A DNA stretch of 63,395 nt from a bacterium (GTDB lineage Bacteria; Patescibacteriota; Minisyncoccia; Phycocordibacterales; UBA5272): NCBI GenBank assembly GCA_043745785.1, contig JAYTSG010000033.1:1-63395 (forward strand). Direction: 5' to 3'. Both the position numbers and the translations under genes were made by a program. Of the stretch, positions 3,792 through 60,654 are shown in pieces. Below the pieces are notes generated by a model. It saw only the letters and a program-made list of their open reading frames with translations. It was not told where the DNA came from and made no database searches. Every line of letters begins with the position of its first letter. Position 1 is the stretch's first letter.

Positions 3792-3863
3792 GCTCTCGTA
3801 GTTCAATGGATAGAATATGGGTTTGCGGTACCCACGATGCAGGTTCGATTCCTGCCGAGAGCA
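3792..3863 (+). tRNA. tRNA-Arg (anticodon GCG)
   Basis: Acceptor gctctcg/cgagagc; anticodon loop UUGCGGU; T-arm gcagg-ttcgatt-cctgc. Confidence 0.8.
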
Positions 3864-3958
3864 CAACTGTGTGAGACAGACCGAGGTGCTTAAAAACAAC
3901 ATGTTTTGTATGTAGTTTTAATGGTTTACGAGGTTAACCTAGTATTGTTTACTAGTTT

Positions 3959-4633
3959 TTAAGAGCGTTCTTTACTATTAAGTATTTCTTGTGCAACCCT
4001 ATCATTTTCTTCTTTTGCTTGTTTTAGTGCCTCAGGTATTTTACCGATACTTTCGGCCATGTATGGAAGATCTTCTGCAGTATTTATCAGTGTGTCGTGT
4101 TCGCTGCCCTGCACATAAAACGACACGCCGATGAAGTTGGCGAGTTCCCGAGCACGAGCTAGTTCTTGGAAGCTTCGTACAGTTTGGTTTAATGCAGTGA
4201 AAGAATTTGTCGGTATTGGCAAAGGAATAGGTTTCCTGCCCTGATAGTACATGGAACTAGTTTGTTCACTTTTAAGTGTGATATAAAATGAGCTGTTTTT
4301 ACTCTCAACACCCTGAGTATTTACTGAAGAAGTAATAGTCTGATAAATGAAAACTATGTCAGCATAAGGGTATACAACACAGGTACTACCAACAATTCTC
4401 TTTTTTGTTACAGTTAGAGTTCTGGCGATACTATCCGCAGACACTGAAGTATTTGAGGATAAGAATAGAGCAACCAGCATAAAACAGAAGACAATAAGTG
4501 GAATGGCGACAGGTACAGTCTTTCCTGTTAAGAAAATAAAGAGTGTTATAAGGAAAACACTAGCACCAGTTAATCTTACTGGCCAGGCTGGACTGATGAA
4601 GGTTAATGTTGATGATGTGGGGGATGTTTCCAT
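3959..4633 (-). CDS. Hypothetical membrane protein (N-terminal TM helices)
   Basis: 224-aa ORF with hydrophobic N-terminal third; no recognisable family. Confidence 0.5.
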   Translation of the reverse strand: METSPTSSTLTFISPAWPVRLTGASVFLITLFIFLTGKTVPVAIPLIVFCFMLVALFLSSNTSVSADSIARTLTVTKKRIVGSTCVVYPYADIVFIYQTITSSVNTQGVESKNSSFYITLKSEQTSSMYYQGRKPIPLPIPTNSFTALNQTVRSFQELARARELANFIGVSFYVQGSEHDTLINTAEDLPYMAESIGKIPEALKQAKEENDRVAQEILNSKERS

Positions 4634-4641
4634 GCCAATTA

Positions 4642-5568
4642 TTATTTAACTGTTACTGTTGTTACAGAAGAAGACTGTAGTCTAGTTTTTGTATTTTTTG
4701 CTGTTAAGGTCTTTGTAAGAGTGCAGCCTATAAGGTAGGTATTAATCTTAAAAGAATCTTTCCCAGAAGCTGCAATATCTCGAGGCGGTCTTGTCTCATT
4801 TGACTTTGGATCAACACAACCTGTGGCTGAGTATGTCTCTGTAAGACTGTCAGCACCCGTTGAAGTCCATTCGTAATTCGCCCAATCACCAGCTGTAACA
4901 GTTATTTTGGTTGCTCCATTTGGAAAATCTGCACTTACAGAATAAGATATTATTGGTGCGGTGCCAGATGTTTTGTTGTTATCACTAGCGCCAGGAGCAA
5001 CATTAGCTGCTGTGGTATTCTTAATATAAAAATAATCACTCGTTCCTCCAGAATTATAAACTGTACTTACATTACTAAAAACTAACTGATATTTTTCATA
5101 CTGTTTTCTACTCATGTCTGGAACAGTAAAAGAAAACTTCCCGATTGTCTCGTCTGCATTACCTAATACTGTATCAAACTGGTACGTTGAATCAATAAGT
5201 CTAACTTGATATGAAGGTGCTCTAGCCATTTTGCCAGCAACCCATGTAACTGTATATGTTTGACCTGGCACAAGAACTGTTCCAAAACTTGGGTATGTGA
5301 CTTTAAAAGAAGTCACTTCTCTGTATTCCTCCGGAGTCATATCAGTTTTTGCCGTTTCTTTTACAATTTTTGTTAGTTGCTCGCCATCAGGTAATGCATC
5401 TGATTTAGTGGCAACACTAGCGGGAGTGGTTTGAAGAGCTTGACTATTTTTTATTTGTTTATATTTCCACAAACCCCCGACAGCGAGACAAATGACAAGA
5501 ATTAATACAAAAATTATTTTTTTCATACTATTTATTATATCATTTTTCAGTTCATTTGTCTTAAACAC
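4642..5568 (-). CDS. Hypothetical secreted or membrane-anchored protein
   Basis: 308-aa ORF; N-terminal anchor KKIIFVLILVICLAVGG; Thr/Ser-rich; no recognisable family. Confidence 0.55.
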   Translation of the reverse strand: MFKTNELKNDIINSMKKIIFVLILVICLAVGGLWKYKQIKNSQALQTTPASVATKSDALPDGEQLTKIVKETAKTDMTPEEYREVTSFKVTYPSFGTVLVPGQTYTVTWVAGKMARAPSYQVRLIDSTYQFDTVLGNADETIGKFSFTVPDMSRKQYEKYQLVFSNVSTVYNSGGTSDYFYIKNTTAANVAPGASDNNKTSGTAPIISYSVSADFPNGATKITVTAGDWANYEWTSTGADSLTETYSATGCVDPKSNETRPPRDIAASGKDSFKINTYLIGCTLTKTLTAKNTKTRLQSSSVTTVTVK

Positions 5569-5648
5569 CCCTGACCAAGAGGGTCCAAAATGTGTTTCCT
5601 GAAATTACTAGTAAGCCCTTATAGAGCTTGATTGTATAAAATCCGAGA

Positions 5649-5866
5649 CCGAGCGAGAGCACAGAATATAAAAGACCGAGAAGCCTCTCGGTCTTTTATA
5701 TTCTGTGCTCTCGGAGCAAGCAAACTGCTTTGCTTGCGTCAGGAATCGAAGGGTGGAGCTATGTTTTTCTAGCAAGAAAAACGAGCGAGCCGGGGTCGAG
5801 GAAATTTCGAGTGGCGACGAGAAATTATCCGTGACCGAAAGTGTACTCACATTTCCTGCCGAGAGC
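5649..5866 (+). repeat. tRNA-matched structured module, Arg-type copy
   Basis: 27-bp perfect hairpin 5655-5681/5686-5712; antisense acceptor tgtgctctcgg 5704-5714; hairpin H1 5715-5739; antisense T-arm caggaatcgaa 5740-5750; ccggggtcgag 5790-5800; sense repeat 5853-5866. Confidence 0.7.
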
Positions 5867-5998
5867 GCTCTCATGTGAGACAGGTCGAGAGGTTTATTTT
5901 CTTGGTCCCTAAAAAGACTATAGTTCAAAAGACGTACATATGAAGAATCCTCAAAAAAATTTTCTTTTGTTTGTTGTTCTGAGACAAAACAACTACAT

Positions 5999-6485
5999 CT
6001 ATGCTCTTTTCCATTCCGTCTTTACACCTTTAAGTTTGTTGTCCGCCATCAAAAGTTCATCATATATTCCGTCGATTAAATCTTTTTCTTTCACCGTTTC
6101 AAGCGTTACCCATTCGTAGGCATCAGTTTCACTTTCCTGTAGCTTCACTTCTCCAGAAACATAATCTGCCATGCACGATATCACGAGGGAAGGTGCACCA
6201 TCGGCGTGTACCGTTGCAAGACTTGTAACGTACTCTATAATTAGTGATTTCGAGTCCAACCTCTTCGCGCACTTCTCTTTTTAGAACTTGTTCAAGTACA
6301 TTGTACCAGTAATCTTTCGTATCTTTTGGAAGGTTGATATAATCATCAGTTTCTAATTTTCCTCCAGGCACAGTCCACATCGAAGGGAAGCGTTTTTTTC
6401 CTGCAGAACGTCTTGTAATGAGATACTTACCATCTTTAATAACAATTGCTGTCATAACCACTTCATGCAAATATTTATTTTCCAT
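5999..6485 (-). pseudogene. Nudix hydrolase interrupted by a 1-nt frameshift
   Basis: Nudix box GGKLE...REVREEVGLEI in ORF 6129..6485 continues as IEYVTSLATVHADG... in ORF 5999..6259 in another frame; junction near 6235-6245. Confidence 0.6.
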
Positions 6486-9585: not shown

Positions 9586-9878
9586 TGGAAGAGAGGACTC
9601 AGTCACCAAACATATCTTTTACTTTTCTTTTTTAAAGTAAATAAAAAAGATATTTCGCTACATAAGGAAAACAGACAAAATCATTTCACAAAAACACTTA
9701 GGCTAATTTTCGTAAAAATTCCGTAATTAGTTTTTCATTTTGCCTCCTCTTTGTTTGATTTACAGCTTGATAGAGTTTTCCTAGGGATTAATCGTTTACT
9801 ATGAGTAGATTCTTTACTATCTATCTCCCACTAAAAATAAATATCACGAAGCAGGTGCTTCGTGATATTTATTTTTAG
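9586..9878 (-). repeat. Module downstream of tRNA-Val (partial homology to the Leu-type module)
   Basis: 33-bp perfect palindrome 9820-9852/9857-9889; on the minus strand aaaagatatgtttggtgac is followed by a degenerate tRNA-Val 3' copy gagtcctctcttcc (plus coordinates about 9586-9620). Confidence 0.5.
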
Positions 9879-9951
9879 TGGGAGATAGAGGGCTCGAACC
9901 TCTGACCTTCTCGGTGTAAACGAGTTGCTCTACCAACTGAGCTAATCTCCC
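9879..9951 (-). tRNA. tRNA-Val (anticodon UAC)
   Basis: Acceptor gggagat/atctccc; anticodon loop UUUACAC; T-arm agagg-ttcgagc-cctct. Confidence 0.85.
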
Positions 9952-11472: not shown

Positions 11473-11556
11473 GCCCAGGTGGCGGAATTGGTAGACGCAC
11501 TACCTTGAGGTGGTAGCGGGGTTATCCTCGTGGAGGTTCAAGTCCTCTCTTGGGCA
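11473..11556 (+). tRNA. tRNA-Leu (anticodon GAG)
   Basis: Acceptor gcccagg/cttgggc; anticodon loop UUGAGGU; long variable arm. Confidence 0.85.
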
Positions 11557-11815
11557 CAGAGAAATAAAAAACAAAGCTTTGTAGCTTTGTTTTTTATTTC
11601 TCTGTGCCCAAGAAGCAAGTGACCAATGTCACTTGCGTGAGGACTTGAAAGAATTGCCGGTCTACAGCTTTGAGTACTTCGAAAAGTTGTCGGCAATTCC
11701 CGGGGTCGCGAAACAATCTTTTTCTCAAGTCGAAGACGAAAAGAAAAAGATATGTTTGGTGACCAAGTCCTCTCTGTGCCCAAGAAGAAAGCAAACCGGT
11801 TTGCTTTCGTTACCA
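11557..11815 (+). repeat. tRNA-matched structured module, Leu-type copy
   Basis: 30-bp perfect palindrome 11548-11577/11584-11613; antisense acceptor 11603-11613; H1 11614-11638; antisense T-arm 11639-11649; cccggggtcgcg 11699-11710; sense T-arm 11764-11774; second antisense acceptor plus H1' 11775-11810. Confidence 0.7.
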
Positions 11816-16699: not shown

Positions 16700-16771
16700 G
16701 TGGCTATAGTGTAACGGTTAGCACTAGGGTTTGTGGAACCCTCAGTTCGGGTTCAAATCCCGATAGCCACA
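16700..16771 (+). tRNA. tRNA-His (anticodon GUG)
   Basis: Acceptor gtggcta/tagccac (a G precedes at 16699); anticodon loop UUGUGGA; T-arm tcggg-ttcaaat-cccga. Confidence 0.85.
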
Positions 16772-16962
16772 CAAAAGTTCAAATCCCGATAAGTATACTT
16801 ATCGGGATTTGAACTTTTGTGTGGCTAAGCAAGCAAACTGCTTTGCTTGTGTGCGGGATTTGAAAGTCCGGAACATGTTTCGCTAGCAAGCGAAACGGTG
16901 AGGAGCGGGAGGCGAGAACTTTTTGTGGCGACAAAAAGTTACTTGCGGAAAAATCCCGATAG
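16772..16962 (+). repeat. tRNA-matched structured module, His-type copy M1
   Basis: 64-nt perfect palindrome 16764-16827; antisense acceptor 16820-16827; H1 16828-16852; antisense T-arm 16853-16864; H2 and H3 hairpins; sense repeat 16951-16962. Confidence 0.7.
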
Positions 16963-17042
16963 AATTTATCTAGATTTTTTGATAAATCTAATTTTATAGA
17001 GACATTGGTATTTAATAAAAATAGGAGTAGAATTAAAGTAGT

Positions 17043-59733: not shown

Positions 59734-60044
59734 TTTGAGTTTATTGCATCTATTTTATTGACATTTACCGGAAACTTTTATTGAATACTACTAAAAATAT
59801 TCGTACCATTTTCATCAACGCCAATAAGAAATGAGTTCTTGGTAAGAGAGACATCCCCCTTCCTGAGGTAGGAAATGGTCTTCTAAAGAAAAAGAGTAAG
59901 CACTAAGAATTTTTTCATGAGATAAAGAGGAGAAACTTATATAACTTCTCGTCATGCCATGGGCATTTATTGTGATTGGAATGAACAGTAAATTTCATCA
60001 GACTCCTTCTTTTCATGAGACTCACAAGTTATTAGCTTTCTCAA

Positions 60045-60260
60045 GACATTTAGGGTCTTTCCGTCGCAAGTACTCGCGAGCTCATCTCGCTTGTTTTAGT
60101 TTTGTCTTGAACCCAACAAAACTAAAACATAGCTGCGACCGTTCGAATCCTCACAGACGTGAGCGTCTCCCAATATGATTCTCTAATCAGCGGTTCACGT
60201 CTTCCATCTCCACAGAAAATAAAAGTGCGACACCTTTCGGTGTCGCACTTTTATTTTCTG
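60045..60260 (-). repeat. tmRNA-matched module
   Basis: 31-bp perfect palindrome 60204-60234/60239-60269 includes the tmRNA 3' end; on the minus strand tgggagacgc, hairpin ctcac-gtct-gtgag, ggattcgaacgg (antisense T-arm), then atgttttagttttg...caaaactaaaac hairpin and gtacttgcgacggaaag as in M1. Confidence 0.55.
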
Positions 60261-60654
60261 TGGAGATGGGCGGATTCGAACCGCCGTGTACAAAAGGGTA
60301 AGGGTAGCATCTACGTTACGTAGTTTGCTTTTATATGTCTCGACATCCTCCTCTAAAAAACAAACCAAATGAGAAAGATGTCAAAGCACATTGTTTCGGA
60401 ATTTCTCTGTGCGTGTAGAAGTTCCTACGCTCGTAAGTATATTGCCCACACTTTCTCTTACGAGTAAAGAAAAAGGGGACACCAGGTTGGCGTATTACGC
60501 GAACGCTGGAGCAAATCCGAACGCCATATATGGTGAAGGGATAGCCTTAGCAGTTTTGTTTGCACAAAATTGTTACAACAAGCTTAACGAAATTTGTTGC
60601 CACTTCGGTGACGCACTACCTCTACCTTTTTTGTATCGATACCAGTACATCCCC
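60261..60654 (-). ncRNA. ssrA: tmRNA (SsrA)
   Basis: 5' GGGGAUG pairs with 3' CAUCUCC-A including G3:U; T-arm ggcggttcgaatccgcc; tag ORF 60563..60495 encodes ANKTAKAIPSPYMAFGFAPAFA*; lies downstream of smpB. Confidence 0.85.

Follow-up and report, generated by a model that had tools for sequence, protein, structure and literature searches.

Protein-less mirror module and nested two-gene segment at the 3' end of a tRNA-Arg gene in a Patescibacteria genome

The 3' end of the tRNA-Arg(GCG) gene in the window (the whole stretch of 63,395 nt that was analysed) appears to hold two nested insertions, a reading to which we give a somewhat better than even chance; the older of the two would be a mirror module of ∼200 nt (5654-5852). 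Comparisons within the window and with related genomes established the anatomy of the module, its membership in a larger family, its fold as a single strand, the polarity of insertion, and the nesting (Table 1). In the explanation that we favor, a module would insert at some point from about position 56 to the 3' end of its target tRNA or tmRNA gene and supply its own copy of the segment that it entered, leaving the tRNA intact; the original 3' end and its trailer would be pushed downstream and decay there, in this case as 5853-5896. Read along the tRNA strand, the unit runs from the replacement 3' end through a terminator-like hairpin, the arms of which take in the acceptor strand, to A' (a mirror of tRNA positions 65-75), a hairpin H, T' (a mirror of positions 54-64), and a scaffold of ∼100 nt. 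The single strand forms nested three-way junctions in which the target is recreated as a duplex, and H occupies exactly the point from which the D and anticodon arms of a real tRNA emerge. Later, a 1.79-kb operon of two membrane or secreted genes (3866-5653) would have entered between tRNA and module, bringing a fresh acceptor strand and trailer and leaving a 10-nt relic at 5654-5663. A fully empty site would be expected to read gattcctgccgagagc followed at once by gctctcatgtgagacag, directly past the intact tRNA body.

Table 1. Features of the tRNA-Arg locus and of the other modules in the window
Feature	Position	Strand	Basis or detail
tRNA-Arg(GCG)	3792-3864	+	ARAGORN; Rfam tRNA, 66.6 bits
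Left direct repeat, copy 1	3849-3892	+	tRNA positions ∼59-73 plus 27 nt, trailer-like
Left copy of 10-bp bounding repeat CGAGAGCACA	3856-3865	+	Repeat search
Two-gene segment (nested insertion), 1,788 bp	3866-5653		Absent from tRNA-Arg/module junction of L150
cargo1, 224 aa	3959-4633	-	Two TM helices, PH-like beta sandwich, C-terminal helices
cargo2, 294 aa from MKKII start	4642-5526	-	Signal/TM segment and Ig-like core; ORF to 5568
Sigma-70-like promoter match before cargo2	5534-5562	-	AAGACA-17-TATAAT with TG; consensus match only
Terminator-like perfect hairpin, 28 bp	5654-5713	+	Arms 5654-5681 and 5686-5713, 4-nt loop
A'	5704-5714	+	Reverse complement of 3855-3865 (acceptor 3' strand, discriminator, CA)
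H1 hairpin	5715-5739	+	25 nt; 9-bp stem, CTGC loop
T'	5740-5750	+	Reverse complement of 3844-3854 (T-loop and four nt of T-stem 3' strand)
Type-A scaffold	5751-5852	+	Covariance model R1, 114 bits; covariation; fold
Right direct repeat, copy 3	5853-5896	+	Holds palindrome 5861-5872; repeat search and flank identity
Module at tRNA-Leu(GAG)	11549-11810	+	Covariance model
tRNA-Leu module, left part		+	Hairpin 11549-11612, H variant 11614-11638, T' 11639-11649
tRNA-Leu module, right part		+	Long scaffold, copy 3 from 11765, second H-like hairpin 11786-11810
Module at tRNA-His(GTG), without cargo	16764-16967	+	Covariance model
tRNA-His module parts		+	Hairpin 16764-16827, H1 16828-16852, T' 16853-16864, scaffold, copy 3 16951-16962
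Module at tmRNA 3' end	60010-60269	-	Covariance model
tmRNA module parts		-	Hairpin 60269-60204, H (32-nt loop) 60203-60153, T' 60152-60142, type-A scaffold

The first-pass annotation had pointed to a 14-nt repeat, ttcctgccgagagc, at 3849-3862 and again at 5853-5866, each copy followed 7 nt on by tgtgagacag (3870-3879 and 5874-5883). Both were found as described, and a repeat search extended the match to a direct repeat of 44 nt with 75% identity (3849-3892 and 5853-5896). Past the tRNA end the two flanks agree in register at 19 of 30 positions, where random window pairs average 7.9; since the fraction of such pairs scoring 19 or more is 5e-5, the homology of the flanks is real. The 12-nt stretch at 5861-5872, gagagcgctctc, is a perfect palindrome, as had been noted. 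Insertion is targeted to the last ∼20 nt of tRNA-Arg(GCG), which at present form the newest copy of its 3' end. We read 5853-5896 as the probable original tRNA-Arg 3' end with its old trailer, moved downstream by insertion of the module, given that the module is joined directly to tRNA-Arg in a relative and is free of cargo elsewhere, and by analogy with pairs of occupied and empty sites. The repeat thus bears out the earlier suggestion of tRNA-targeted integration, in the form of an att-type duplication of the tRNA 3' end produced by insertion into the gene.

The acceptor strand and trailer are present as three paralogous copies at this locus. A degenerate third tRNA end had been placed at about 5641-5663; its exact part is the 10 nt of CGAGAGCACA at 5654-5663 (identical to 3856-3865), while the sequence upstream is not tRNA-like. 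A decayed second tRNA-Arg upstream of 5654 was considered and rejected (alignment score of 16, shuffle mean of 16). The relic forms the start of the left arm of the terminator-like hairpin, which had been reported as 27 bp and is perfect over 28, and the right arm closes with the mirror. The antisense module itself proved to be exact and matched to tRNA-Arg: 5704-5714 and 5740-5750 together are the exact reverse complement of 3844-3865, split by H1 between 3854 and 3855. Downstream, the type-A scaffold forms a three-way junction of a CTAGCAAG-loop hairpin, a GGTCG/TGACC stem, and a GTGGCGAC-loop hairpin (with GTGACC at 5831-5836); it also includes a linker of 16 nt.

Four copies of the module were identified in the window with a covariance model, at tRNA-Arg, tRNA-His, tRNA-Leu, and tmRNA, out of eight tRNA/tmRNA genes; the latter three are free of cargo. 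H1 recurs with one mismatch at 16828-16852, where none would be expected by chance, and the loop pair CTAGCAAG...GTGGCGAC recurs along with it. Chance was rejected as an origin on these recurrences (0 expected) and on the flank identity (p ∼5e-5). Patescibacteria genomes are tiny, yet this window spends four structured modules of ∼200 nt on its eight tRNA/tmRNA genes.

Beyond the window, the 21-mer core of H1 is present in at least 120 genome loci. The covariance model gave more than 160 matches in contigs of Patescibacteria and Elusimicrobia; matches in other non-Patescibacteria MAGs may be binning errors, the Elusimicrobia ones being on long contigs. Of 117 copies that could be evaluated, 80 have a tRNA or tmRNA gene upstream on the same strand at a distance of at most 70 nt, and 20 isotypes are represented. 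Across copies, T' spans tRNA positions 53/54 to 64/65 and A' begins at 65/66; the duplication covers ∼17 to 20 nt, beginning near position 56 and reaching the end of the tRNA. In relatives, as many as five or six modules lie within 15 kb, tandem arrays occur, and scaffold types are mixed within arrays. Scaffolds at different isotypes are 85 to 95% identical over part of their length only, and this was the closest similarity found: the scaffold comparison yielded no near-identical copies at different targets, which weakens the mobile reading as far as recent movement is concerned. Mosaicism of scaffolds between loci gave a weak signal (80.5% versus 76.4%). Some modules lack H, A'/T', or copy 3, so no part is universal, and second-tier modules mirror sequence that is not tRNA, so tRNA mimicry is not required. 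The modules apparently form a large, highly folded, protein-less family at the 3' ends of tRNA and tmRNA genes that has gone undescribed; a limited literature search found no earlier description of mirror modules.

The family is marked by a strongly covarying fold. RNAalifold predicted 31 pairs with compensatory changes in 22. Over 136 covariance-model matches, 92.7% of cells are paired, compared with ∼40% when the partners are slid, and the covariation score is 0.34 (0.05 with slid partners); double, compensatory changes occur at 31 of 31 pairs. G-U pairs are frequent, with 53 at one position, which identifies the folded strand as the tRNA strand. The strength of this covariation is like that of a riboswitch class. 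Conserved folds rich in G-U pairs are seen more typically in functional RNAs than in DNA att sites, which counts against the att-site reading. Minimum-free-energy folds reproduce the predicted junctions: T A ... A' [H] T' forms a perfect hairpin of 28 to 32 bp plus an 11-bp stem, the acceptor and T stems are stacked with a continuous 3' strand, and the third arm stands at the 7/49 junction. In folds of the Arg, L066, L013, L105, and L080 modules this arm (H) lies opposite the junction of positions 65 and 66. The stretch from A' to copy 3 is predicted to close as a tRNA-like three-way junction, and a hypothetical circular unit would be 78 to 80% paired (z = -12 and -17).

The polarity of insertion was established by comparing occupied and empty sites. 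In five occupied/empty pairs at tRNA-Arg, the flank past copy 3 is homologous to the flank that directly follows the tRNA at the empty site; the original tRNA end has therefore been pushed downstream. In the syntenic relative L150, tRNA-Arg is joined directly to a homologous module, and tRNA end plus module are collinear with 5654-5827 of the window; the hairpins of the two modules are homologous, that of L150 beginning within its tRNA. The two-gene segment is therefore a second, nested insertion, and the apparent boundary of the island is the scar of an older and smaller one. The comparison with related genomes that had been proposed earlier revealed the module without the segment in L150 and empty tRNA-Arg sites in the five pairs. 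Turnover is seen at other genes as well: L150 has other module types at the same tRNAs as the window, and it bears modules at Ser and Val, two sites that in the window show a stub at most. In a search for a strain-level empty site, every Logan contig of the same strain either contained the island or ended at 3836-3864 and 5761.

The nested segment is flanked by the 10-bp repeat CGAGAGCACA (3856-3865 and 5654-5663), and its left end is homologous to the native tRNA-Arg trailer. Its GC content (0.37 to 0.385) equals that of its flanks, giving no sign of foreign composition. As predicted, it encodes two minus-strand membrane or secreted proteins of no assigned family, neither of which has a recombinase domain in Pfam, in keeping with the claim that the interval lacks an integrase. 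The homology and structure searches that had been suggested for both proteins gave no PDB sequence match to either; cargo1 also had no Pfam match, and its predicted fold yielded a weak, EROS-like PH-domain match only. For cargo2, three homologous clusters were found and the structure model was of poor quality. The pair consists of conserved membrane/secreted genes typical of the lineage, which elsewhere adjoin aminoacyl-tRNA synthetase genes, not tRNAs. In one relative, a cargo1-like gene lies on an island at a tmRNA 3' end together with a large serine recombinase, which favors an island-like origin of the segment. The displaced copy at the segment keeps the acceptor strand only, without the T-arm part; with such a relic, microhomology-mediated insertion fits as well as site-specific integration.

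No protein or known RNA could be linked to the modules. A Pfam scan of 40 window ORFs revealed no recombinase, all-against-all clustering of 1,272 ORFs found no protein family in more than 9 of 120 loci (the top clusters were housekeeping), and no DEDD or other recombinase was found in ∼240 loci; the ORFs that neighbor the modules were looked over by eye. A known RNA family was rejected: Rfam matches at gathering score were tRNA and tmRNA only, and E-value scans gave only hairpin-driven miRNA noise. The family is missing from Rfam and from annotation pipelines and will be misread as terminators, pseudo-tRNAs, or att scars. Origin from a phage or plasmid was likewise rejected, as blastn against phage and plasmid collections gave no match. 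H1 had 0 matches in IMG/VR, and a viral scan with a 17-mer of the scaffold returned 8 matches, all of them outside modules and away from tRNAs. The phage, plasmid, and viral scans turned up no autonomous relatives of the modules. The locus is a concrete case of insertion into tRNA genes without a linked recombinase, which poses a testable question: what recognizes the folded mirror of the target?

Four other explanations bear on the two insertions. The first-pass annotation had treated the locus as a single two-gene island with a private module at its end, and 3863-5852 might have entered in one integration event as an integrase-less island, with the module as an Arg-specific att device at its right end and the integrase encoded elsewhere. 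The insertion duplication and the Arg-matched module were borne out, and the 44-nt imperfect repeat that begins in the T-loop, the trailer-like left end, and the serine-recombinase island with a cargo1-like gene are in line with this account; moreover, kilobases also separate tRNA from module at three other loci (L019, L037, and L077). However, the module is free of cargo at three other genes in the window and in L150 adjoins tRNA-Arg without a gap and has a homologous hairpin, the inner 10-bp repeat and relic acceptor strand mark a separate junction, the gene pair adjoins aminoacyl-tRNA synthetase genes in relatives, and no cargo is common to the long-distance loci, those three and L094 all being different. 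We regard a single integration as quite unlikely. For the two-gene segment alone, it is possible, if on balance doubtful, that it came from a close, module-free relative by homology-facilitated illegitimate recombination rather than site-specifically, with the tRNA and upstream genes as anchor and the 10-bp CGAGAGCACA as a microhomology junction. GC content equal to the surroundings, lineage-typical chromosomal genes, a left end homologous to the native trailer, and a relic of 10 nt without any T-arm part agree with such an event; against it, no relative was found in which tRNA-Arg is followed by these genes, and the three serial copies of acceptor strand and trailer suggest repeated use of one att site.

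The modules themselves could be host noncoding RNAs or cis elements of tRNA operons that do not move, for example trailer-encoded RNAs or processing or termination devices that present RNase P, RNase Z, or the CCA-adding enzyme with a mimic of the acceptor/T-arm; the repeats would then arise locally by template switching at hairpins. The strong covariation and G-U pairs on the tRNA strand would suit such a role, as would H exactly at the acceptor/T-stem junction, an A'-H-T' layout like that of the tRNA 5' half, the closed tRNA-like junction predicted from A' to copy 3, and the lack of a linked protein and of recent identical copies. Snap-back duplication gives a + - + arrangement, as in tandem inversion duplications, and the target segments are arranged in this way. 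An immobile host RNA is nevertheless unlikely, considering the empty and occupied alleles with displaced, decaying 3' ends, the mixed scaffold types in tandem arrays, the different module types at orthologous tRNAs of relatives, the same H1 and similar scaffolds at 20 isotypes in two phyla, and the second-tier modules that mirror non-tRNA sequence. It is decidedly improbable that the module specifies a guide RNA, in the manner of the IS110 bridge RNA or IS1111 seekRNA, that serves a recombinase whose gene lies elsewhere; in such an RNA, A' and T', to either side of H, would pair with the tRNA gene's sense strand and the sense copy with the other strand, while the scaffold would bind the enzyme. 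Two 11-nt target-complementary blocks do surround a conserved hairpin, a sense copy lies within the same transcript, the fold is conserved, and one scaffold serves many different targets. Yet no DEDD or other recombinase was seen in the window or among the neighbors inspected at ∼240 loci, both 11-nt blocks are self-paired in the predicted, covarying three-way junctions and not exposed in internal loops, the mirror matches the copy borne by the element itself, as a plain inverted repeat would, and H or the mirror is missing from some members.

For the mobile module that we favor, a complete mechanism can be proposed, which as a whole we rate at somewhat short of an even chance. The module would be excised as a circle and integrated by Campbell-type, short-core site-specific recombination, by a recombinase that is supplied in trans and recognizes the folded mirror and scaffold. 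In read-through transcripts the fold may also serve for tRNA-like processing, so that the host tRNA remains usable. The mirror would belong to the inverted repeat of the element itself, and quasipalindrome (template-switch) correction would keep it perfect. Against the proposal, neither a circular junction nor an excision product was seen. Going further, the modules might be a new class of autonomous-looking yet protein-less mobile units in which a highly folded molecule of ∼200 nt, as transcript or in single-stranded form, specifies the integration site through its target mirror, as a stand-alone, programmable guide/att RNA used by an unlinked recombinase or by tRNA-processing enzymes and spread over Patescibacteria and Elusimicrobia at most tRNA isotypes and tmRNA; we give this a low probability. 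Should integration be guided by the fold, the modules would amount to a compact system open to retargeting; should the fold serve for tRNA-like processing, it would show how a parasite of tRNA genes remains harmless.

The modules share features with several known systems. Like islands and prophages at tRNA genes, they insert into the 3' part, restore the gene, leave the old 3' end as a direct repeat, and stack serially; Williams in 2002 reportedly defined sublocation classes of tyrosine-integrase islands and prophages in the segment of tRNA/tmRNA genes from the T-loop to the 3' end. In contrast to such islands, the module has no integrase or any gene, measures only ∼150 to 250 nt, and has a hairpin-split antisense core and a covarying single-strand scaffold. 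Of the marks of a genomic island, the locus has the tRNA direct repeat but no integrase and no foreign composition or cargo. CIMEs and MITEs are likewise small and protein-less, occur in many copies per genome with tandem accretions, and are presumably moved in trans, but they are not defined by a conserved RNA-like fold. The modules have attL/attR-type flanks and no recombination genes, as CIMEs do. In MITEs the terminal inverted repeats are specific to the element and the target duplications are short, whereas in the modules the inverted repeat is the target and ∼17 to 20 nt are duplicated; terminal inverted repeats, a fixed short duplication, and near-identical copies, which characterize MITEs, were absent.

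Closer parallels exist among folded sites and RNAs. In CTX-phi attP(+), a pair of inverted dif-like sites makes up the forked hairpin on which XerCD acts; there, as in integron attC sites and the modules, inverted site copies a few tens of nt apart can fold into a bulged duplex of the target, structure is conserved rather than sequence, and arrays are possible. The module has what defines a folded attP of the IMEX or CTX-phi type, two inverted target copies that fold into a duplex mimic, but its target is a tRNA end and not dif or attI, it adds a conserved scaffold, and its G-U pairs point to RNA over DNA. It also differs from integron cassettes: no integrase was found in the ORFs scanned, and the module ends are tRNA sequence rather than the R boxes (GTTRRRY core) of attC. 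IS110 bridge RNAs and IS1111 seekRNAs are also structured, retargetable RNAs with target-matching segments around a stem-loop. Their guides are 4 to 8 nt long in open internal loops, and to our knowledge they are always encoded beside a DEDD transposase within an IS of ∼1.2 to 1.5 kb; the module, by contrast, has no enzyme, its blocks of 11 + 11 nt are self-paired, and the element is the RNA alone, with neither an adjacent DEDD transposase nor two guide-bearing internal loops. With tRNA-like domains (the tmRNA TLD, viral 3' structures, and YrlA) the module shares a coaxial acceptor/T-stem and an extra arm at the junction, and both are probably substrates of RNase P/Z-type enzymes. Unlike those domains, the module has its T-loop replaced by the complement plus a 100-nt scaffold, and it copies whichever tRNA adjoins it, or, in second-tier modules, non-tRNA sequence.

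The window is low-GC (0.35-0.42) chromosomal DNA, with genes typical of Patescibacteria/CPR housekeeping (ruvA, fpg, rpsT, a Mur ligase, aminoacyl-tRNA synthetases, nusG, ftsH, and tmRNA). At the 3' end of tRNA-Arg(GCG), a first-pass annotation had described a direct repeat of a 14-mer and a 10-mer, which proved to extend to 44 nt; past the tRNA end the copies are identical at 19 of 30 positions in register, as are 5e-5 of random pairs. The palindrome in the downstream copy was confirmed, as was an antisense of tRNA nt 3844-3865 broken at 3854|3855 by the 25-nt hairpin H1. The perfect hairpin ahead of H1 is present, but has 28 bp rather than the 27 bp claimed. The absence of an integrase was borne out, with no linked protein found. 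The module, a ~200-nt protein-less unit, is not a private device but a member of a family, present without cargo at tRNA-His in the window.

A covariance model built from 29 modules identified four copies in the window, at tRNA-Arg (114 bits), tRNA-His (89 bits), tRNA-Leu (68 bits), and the tmRNA gene (33 bits). The parts of the His module follow the order of the Arg module: the tRNA end opens a perfect 32-bp hairpin, followed by the acceptor-strand mirror, H1 with one mismatch, the T-loop/T-stem mirror, two hairpins with loops CTAGCAAG and GTGGCGAC as in the Arg module and with compensated stems, and finally a 12-nt direct copy of the tRNA T-arm. Beyond copy 3, the displaced direct copy of the tRNA 3' end, the Leu module continues with another mirror and another H-like hairpin; this extra end resembles truncated tandem-array ends at three other loci (L026, L045, and L053). 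In the tmRNA module, H has a 32-nt loop, the mirror T' departs from the tmRNA T-arm at one or two positions, and no clear copy 3 was found. The hairpin at tRNA-Val, long and perfect, takes in the acceptor 3' strand and its mirror. The same tRNA-Val in L150, a syntenic relative, has a full module without H, and the window's hairpin may be a stub or a precursor.

Features of the window discussed in the text
Feature	Coordinates	Strand	Remarks
tRNA-Arg(GCG)	3792-3864		
Direct repeat	3849-3892 / 5853-5896		75% identity; second copy is copy 3
Two-gene segment	3866-5653		1788 bp
cargo1	3959-4633	-	
cargo2	4642-5526	-	
Perfect hairpin, Arg module	5654-5713		
H1, Arg module	5715-5739		
Palindrome	5861-5872		
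NUDIX gene	6129-6485	-	
ORF overlapping NUDIX gene	5999-6259		other frame
Hairpin at tRNA-Val(TAC)	~9821-9888	-	extended hairpin only; no H or scaffold
Module at tRNA-Leu(GAG)	11549-11810	+	covarying H variant, longer scaffold
Second H-like hairpin, Leu module	11786-11810		
Complete sister module at tRNA-His(GTG)	16764-16967	+	type-A scaffold, without cargo
H1 copy, His module	16828-16852		directly after tRNA-His
Module directly 3' of tmRNA gene	60010-60269	-	

On the tRNA strand, a module runs from the tRNA end, in segments T (positions 54-64) and A (65-75), through a terminator-like hairpin, the arms of which are lengthened to take in A and its antisense mirror A', to H, T', a folded scaffold, copy 3, and the flank. 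Copy 3 repeats the stretch of the tRNA that begins at about position 56-60 and runs to the end. Of 61 T' cases, 52 end at position 53/54 and 40 start at 64/65, and A' starts at 65/66; H therefore lies opposite the T-stem/acceptor junction, exactly where nucleotides 8-48 of a real tRNA leave the coaxial acceptor/T helix. H is made up of AG, an 8-9-bp stem, a 4-nt loop, and CGT, and its stem covaries among members (AGTACGACAACTGCTTGTCGTACGT in L150, AGCAAGTGACCAATGTCACTTGCGT at the window's tRNA-Leu). Scaffolds are of several types, and some members lack H or the mirror. In second-tier modules of arrays (L009 and L005), the mirror copies any sequence ahead of the module's own hairpin; hence what the family mirrors is the left end of the element itself rather than a tRNA as such.

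RNAalifold, applied to a MAFFT-based alignment of 29 modules that is independent of any fit to the covariance model, gave 31 pairs, 22 with compensatory changes. In the alignment of 136 model hits, whose fitting to the model favours structure, 92.7% of cells were paired, compared with 31-43% when partners were slid; the covariation score was 0.34 against 0.03-0.06, double changes occurred in every pair, and no shuffle of this alignment scored as high. G-U pairs are common and conserved in position, with 53 at the GGTCG/TGACC stem; since the opposite strand would have mismatches at these places, it is the tRNA strand that folds. We conclude that it carries a conserved single-strand fold, most simply read as RNA, with single-stranded DNA as the alternative. 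Minimum-free-energy folds of individual modules form a closed three-way junction of the A':A stem, H, and the T':T stem, the last of which opens into a second three-way junction. The motif GAGCGWAGCGA recurs in hairpin loops (type-A scaffold apical loops; L013, L029, L105, L118, and others). It contains GCGAAGC/GCGTAGC, known to fold into highly stable mini-hairpins of DNA that have a GNA loop, and may hint at a single-stranded DNA stage.

Scanning with the tRNA-Arg 3' 25-mer gave 120 metagenome loci, both occupied and empty. In five matched occupied/empty pairs (L177/L154, L183/L229, L195/L133, L169/L142, and L157/L129), the flank past copy 3 is homologous to the one that adjoins the tRNA where the site is empty, which identifies copy 3 as the original tRNA end. 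The insert supplies the functional end, and copy 3 is left to decay: in 44 of 70 cases, 9 nt or more of it are kept. Insertion falls in the stretch from about position 56 to the tRNA end and duplicates it, and the insert restores the tRNA. L150, a 162-kb contig, has six tRNA genes in common with the window and bears modules at Leu, Val, Ser (two), His, and Arg(GCG), of types that differ from the window's at the same tRNAs; the window's tRNA-Ser has no module and its tRNA-Val only the possible stub. Some scaffolds at different isotypes in different genomes are 85-95% identical. No near-identical copy pairs at different targets were seen, hence there is no sign of very recent movement. In L169, tRNA-Arg is followed by another kind of insert, made of three ~85-nt units in tandem. 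Each unit is a pseudo tRNA 3' half, interrupted in the T-loop by 20 inserted nt, and has as its last part a copy of the tRNA 3' end; at L142, the homologous site is empty.

Directly 3' of tRNA-Arg in L150 lie cagaatacaaaaag...ctttttgtattctgtgctctcgg, H, caggaatcgaa, a type-A scaffold, and attcctgccgag. This tRNA end and module are collinear with window 5654-5827 (hairpin plus A' 82% identical, T' 100%); the two-gene segment therefore came between the tRNA and an already present module, and the two insertions are nested. The segment equals its surroundings in GC and has its own promoter-like site. The product of cargo2 (294 aa; three homologous clusters only) has a signal/TM segment and an Ig-like core, and its structure model was unreliable. 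For the cargo1 product (224 aa; eleven clusters), the model (pLDDT 79) predicts two TM helices, a PH-like sandwich, and C-terminal helices, EROS being the sole, weak match to the fold. Homologues of both adjoin as the same pair in other contigs, where the upstream ORF, as read by eye, encodes an aminoacyl-tRNA synthetase and no tRNA or module was found near the pair. Relatives of cargo1 occur in varied settings, paired with other proteins that are secreted or bind peptidoglycan. In one relative (L264, 4721-6731), a large serine recombinase gene abuts the 3' end of a tmRNA (86.5% identical, same tag peptide) in an island context, at one side of a stretch where a cargo1-like gene adjoins a PG_binding_1 protein. 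At another locus, L077, a LAGLIDADG-like homing endonuclease ORF (1123-1797, oriented coordinates) lies between tRNA-Met with a first module and a second module, and L037 has a primase-like 709-aa ORF in the corresponding position; the junction between tRNA and module thus seems to serve generally as a landing site.

The two-gene segment has CGAGAGCACA at either boundary (3856-3865 and 5654-5663). Its left end shows homology to two stretches, the old trailer past copy 3 and the module hairpin's left arm, so that the acceptor strand plus trailer occurs three times in series at the locus. Homology-facilitated illegitimate recombination is a possible, if rather unlikely, source of the segment, and a single island, set beside the nested order read from L150, is improbable. 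For the module itself, without a linked protein, we tentatively propose that it moves as a circle with one tRNA-end copy and integrates by short-core recombination supplied in trans. Folded as single-stranded circles, the His and Leu units were 78-80% paired (z = -12 and -17). In the circle, the mirror would pair with the core, giving a duplex replica of the target from which H bulges at the junction; CTX-phi attP(+) has this geometry and integron attC, loosely, a similar one. Once the unit has integrated, read-through from the tRNA would give an RNA with a closed tRNA-like junction that tRNA-processing enzymes could cut away, which would explain selection on the RNA fold. A purely host-encoded trailer RNA appears unlikely. 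The perfect 25-32-bp hairpins fit template-switch correction of quasipalindromes, established in E. coli and Salmonella.

The locus resembles tRNA/tmRNA-targeted integrative elements in site, polarity, and stacking, but an integrase is the defining test of that class and the locus has none. CIMEs and MITEs are similarly small and nonautonomous but differ in repeat logic. Folded att sites share the geometry but not the target or the conserved scaffold. Bridge/seek RNAs are alike only in having target-matched blocks around a stem-loop; their DEDD enzyme and loop architecture are missing, and a true guide RNA for an unlinked recombinase is improbable. We therefore file the modules as a variant of tRNA-end insertion elements; it is doubtful that they represent a categorically new, self-specifying RNA or single-stranded-DNA mobile unit.

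Exact matches to the 21-mer core of H1, a sample biased to one H sequence, occur at at least 120 loci in species-representative genomes. Those listed, with taxonomy in part MAG-based, are mostly from Patescibacteria (Saccharibacteria, Paceibacterota, Kaiser-, Nomura-, and Yonath-bacteria, and others), with several from Elusimicrobia on long contigs. Binning errors could account for the matches in single Leptospira, Campylobacterales, and gammaproteobacterial MAG contigs, and the match in a Thiohalobacter isolate is confined to the hairpin. Of 117 evaluable copies among the matches listed, 80 have a tRNA or tmRNA gene on the same strand no farther than 70 nt upstream; another 13, second units of tandem arrays, are within 300 nt of one, and 20 isotypes are represented. 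The covariance model gave 136 matches in 100 of the H1-core loci; in a set made up of the window and 99 tRNA-Arg loci fetched independently, it gave 29. The family had no match in Rfam, IMG/VR, or annotated phage and plasmid collections, and a literature search of restricted reach found no relevant account.

Logan unitigs of the window's strain from several samples (L121-L127 and L267) break within the T-arm of tRNA-Arg (3836-3864) and within the Arg module (5761); the breaks are graph branches that could stem from strain variants or from shared tRNA k-mers. The NUDIX gene and the ORF that overlaps it (together 5999-6485, minus strand) are split in the same way in same-strain contigs, and the region may be a frameshifted gene.
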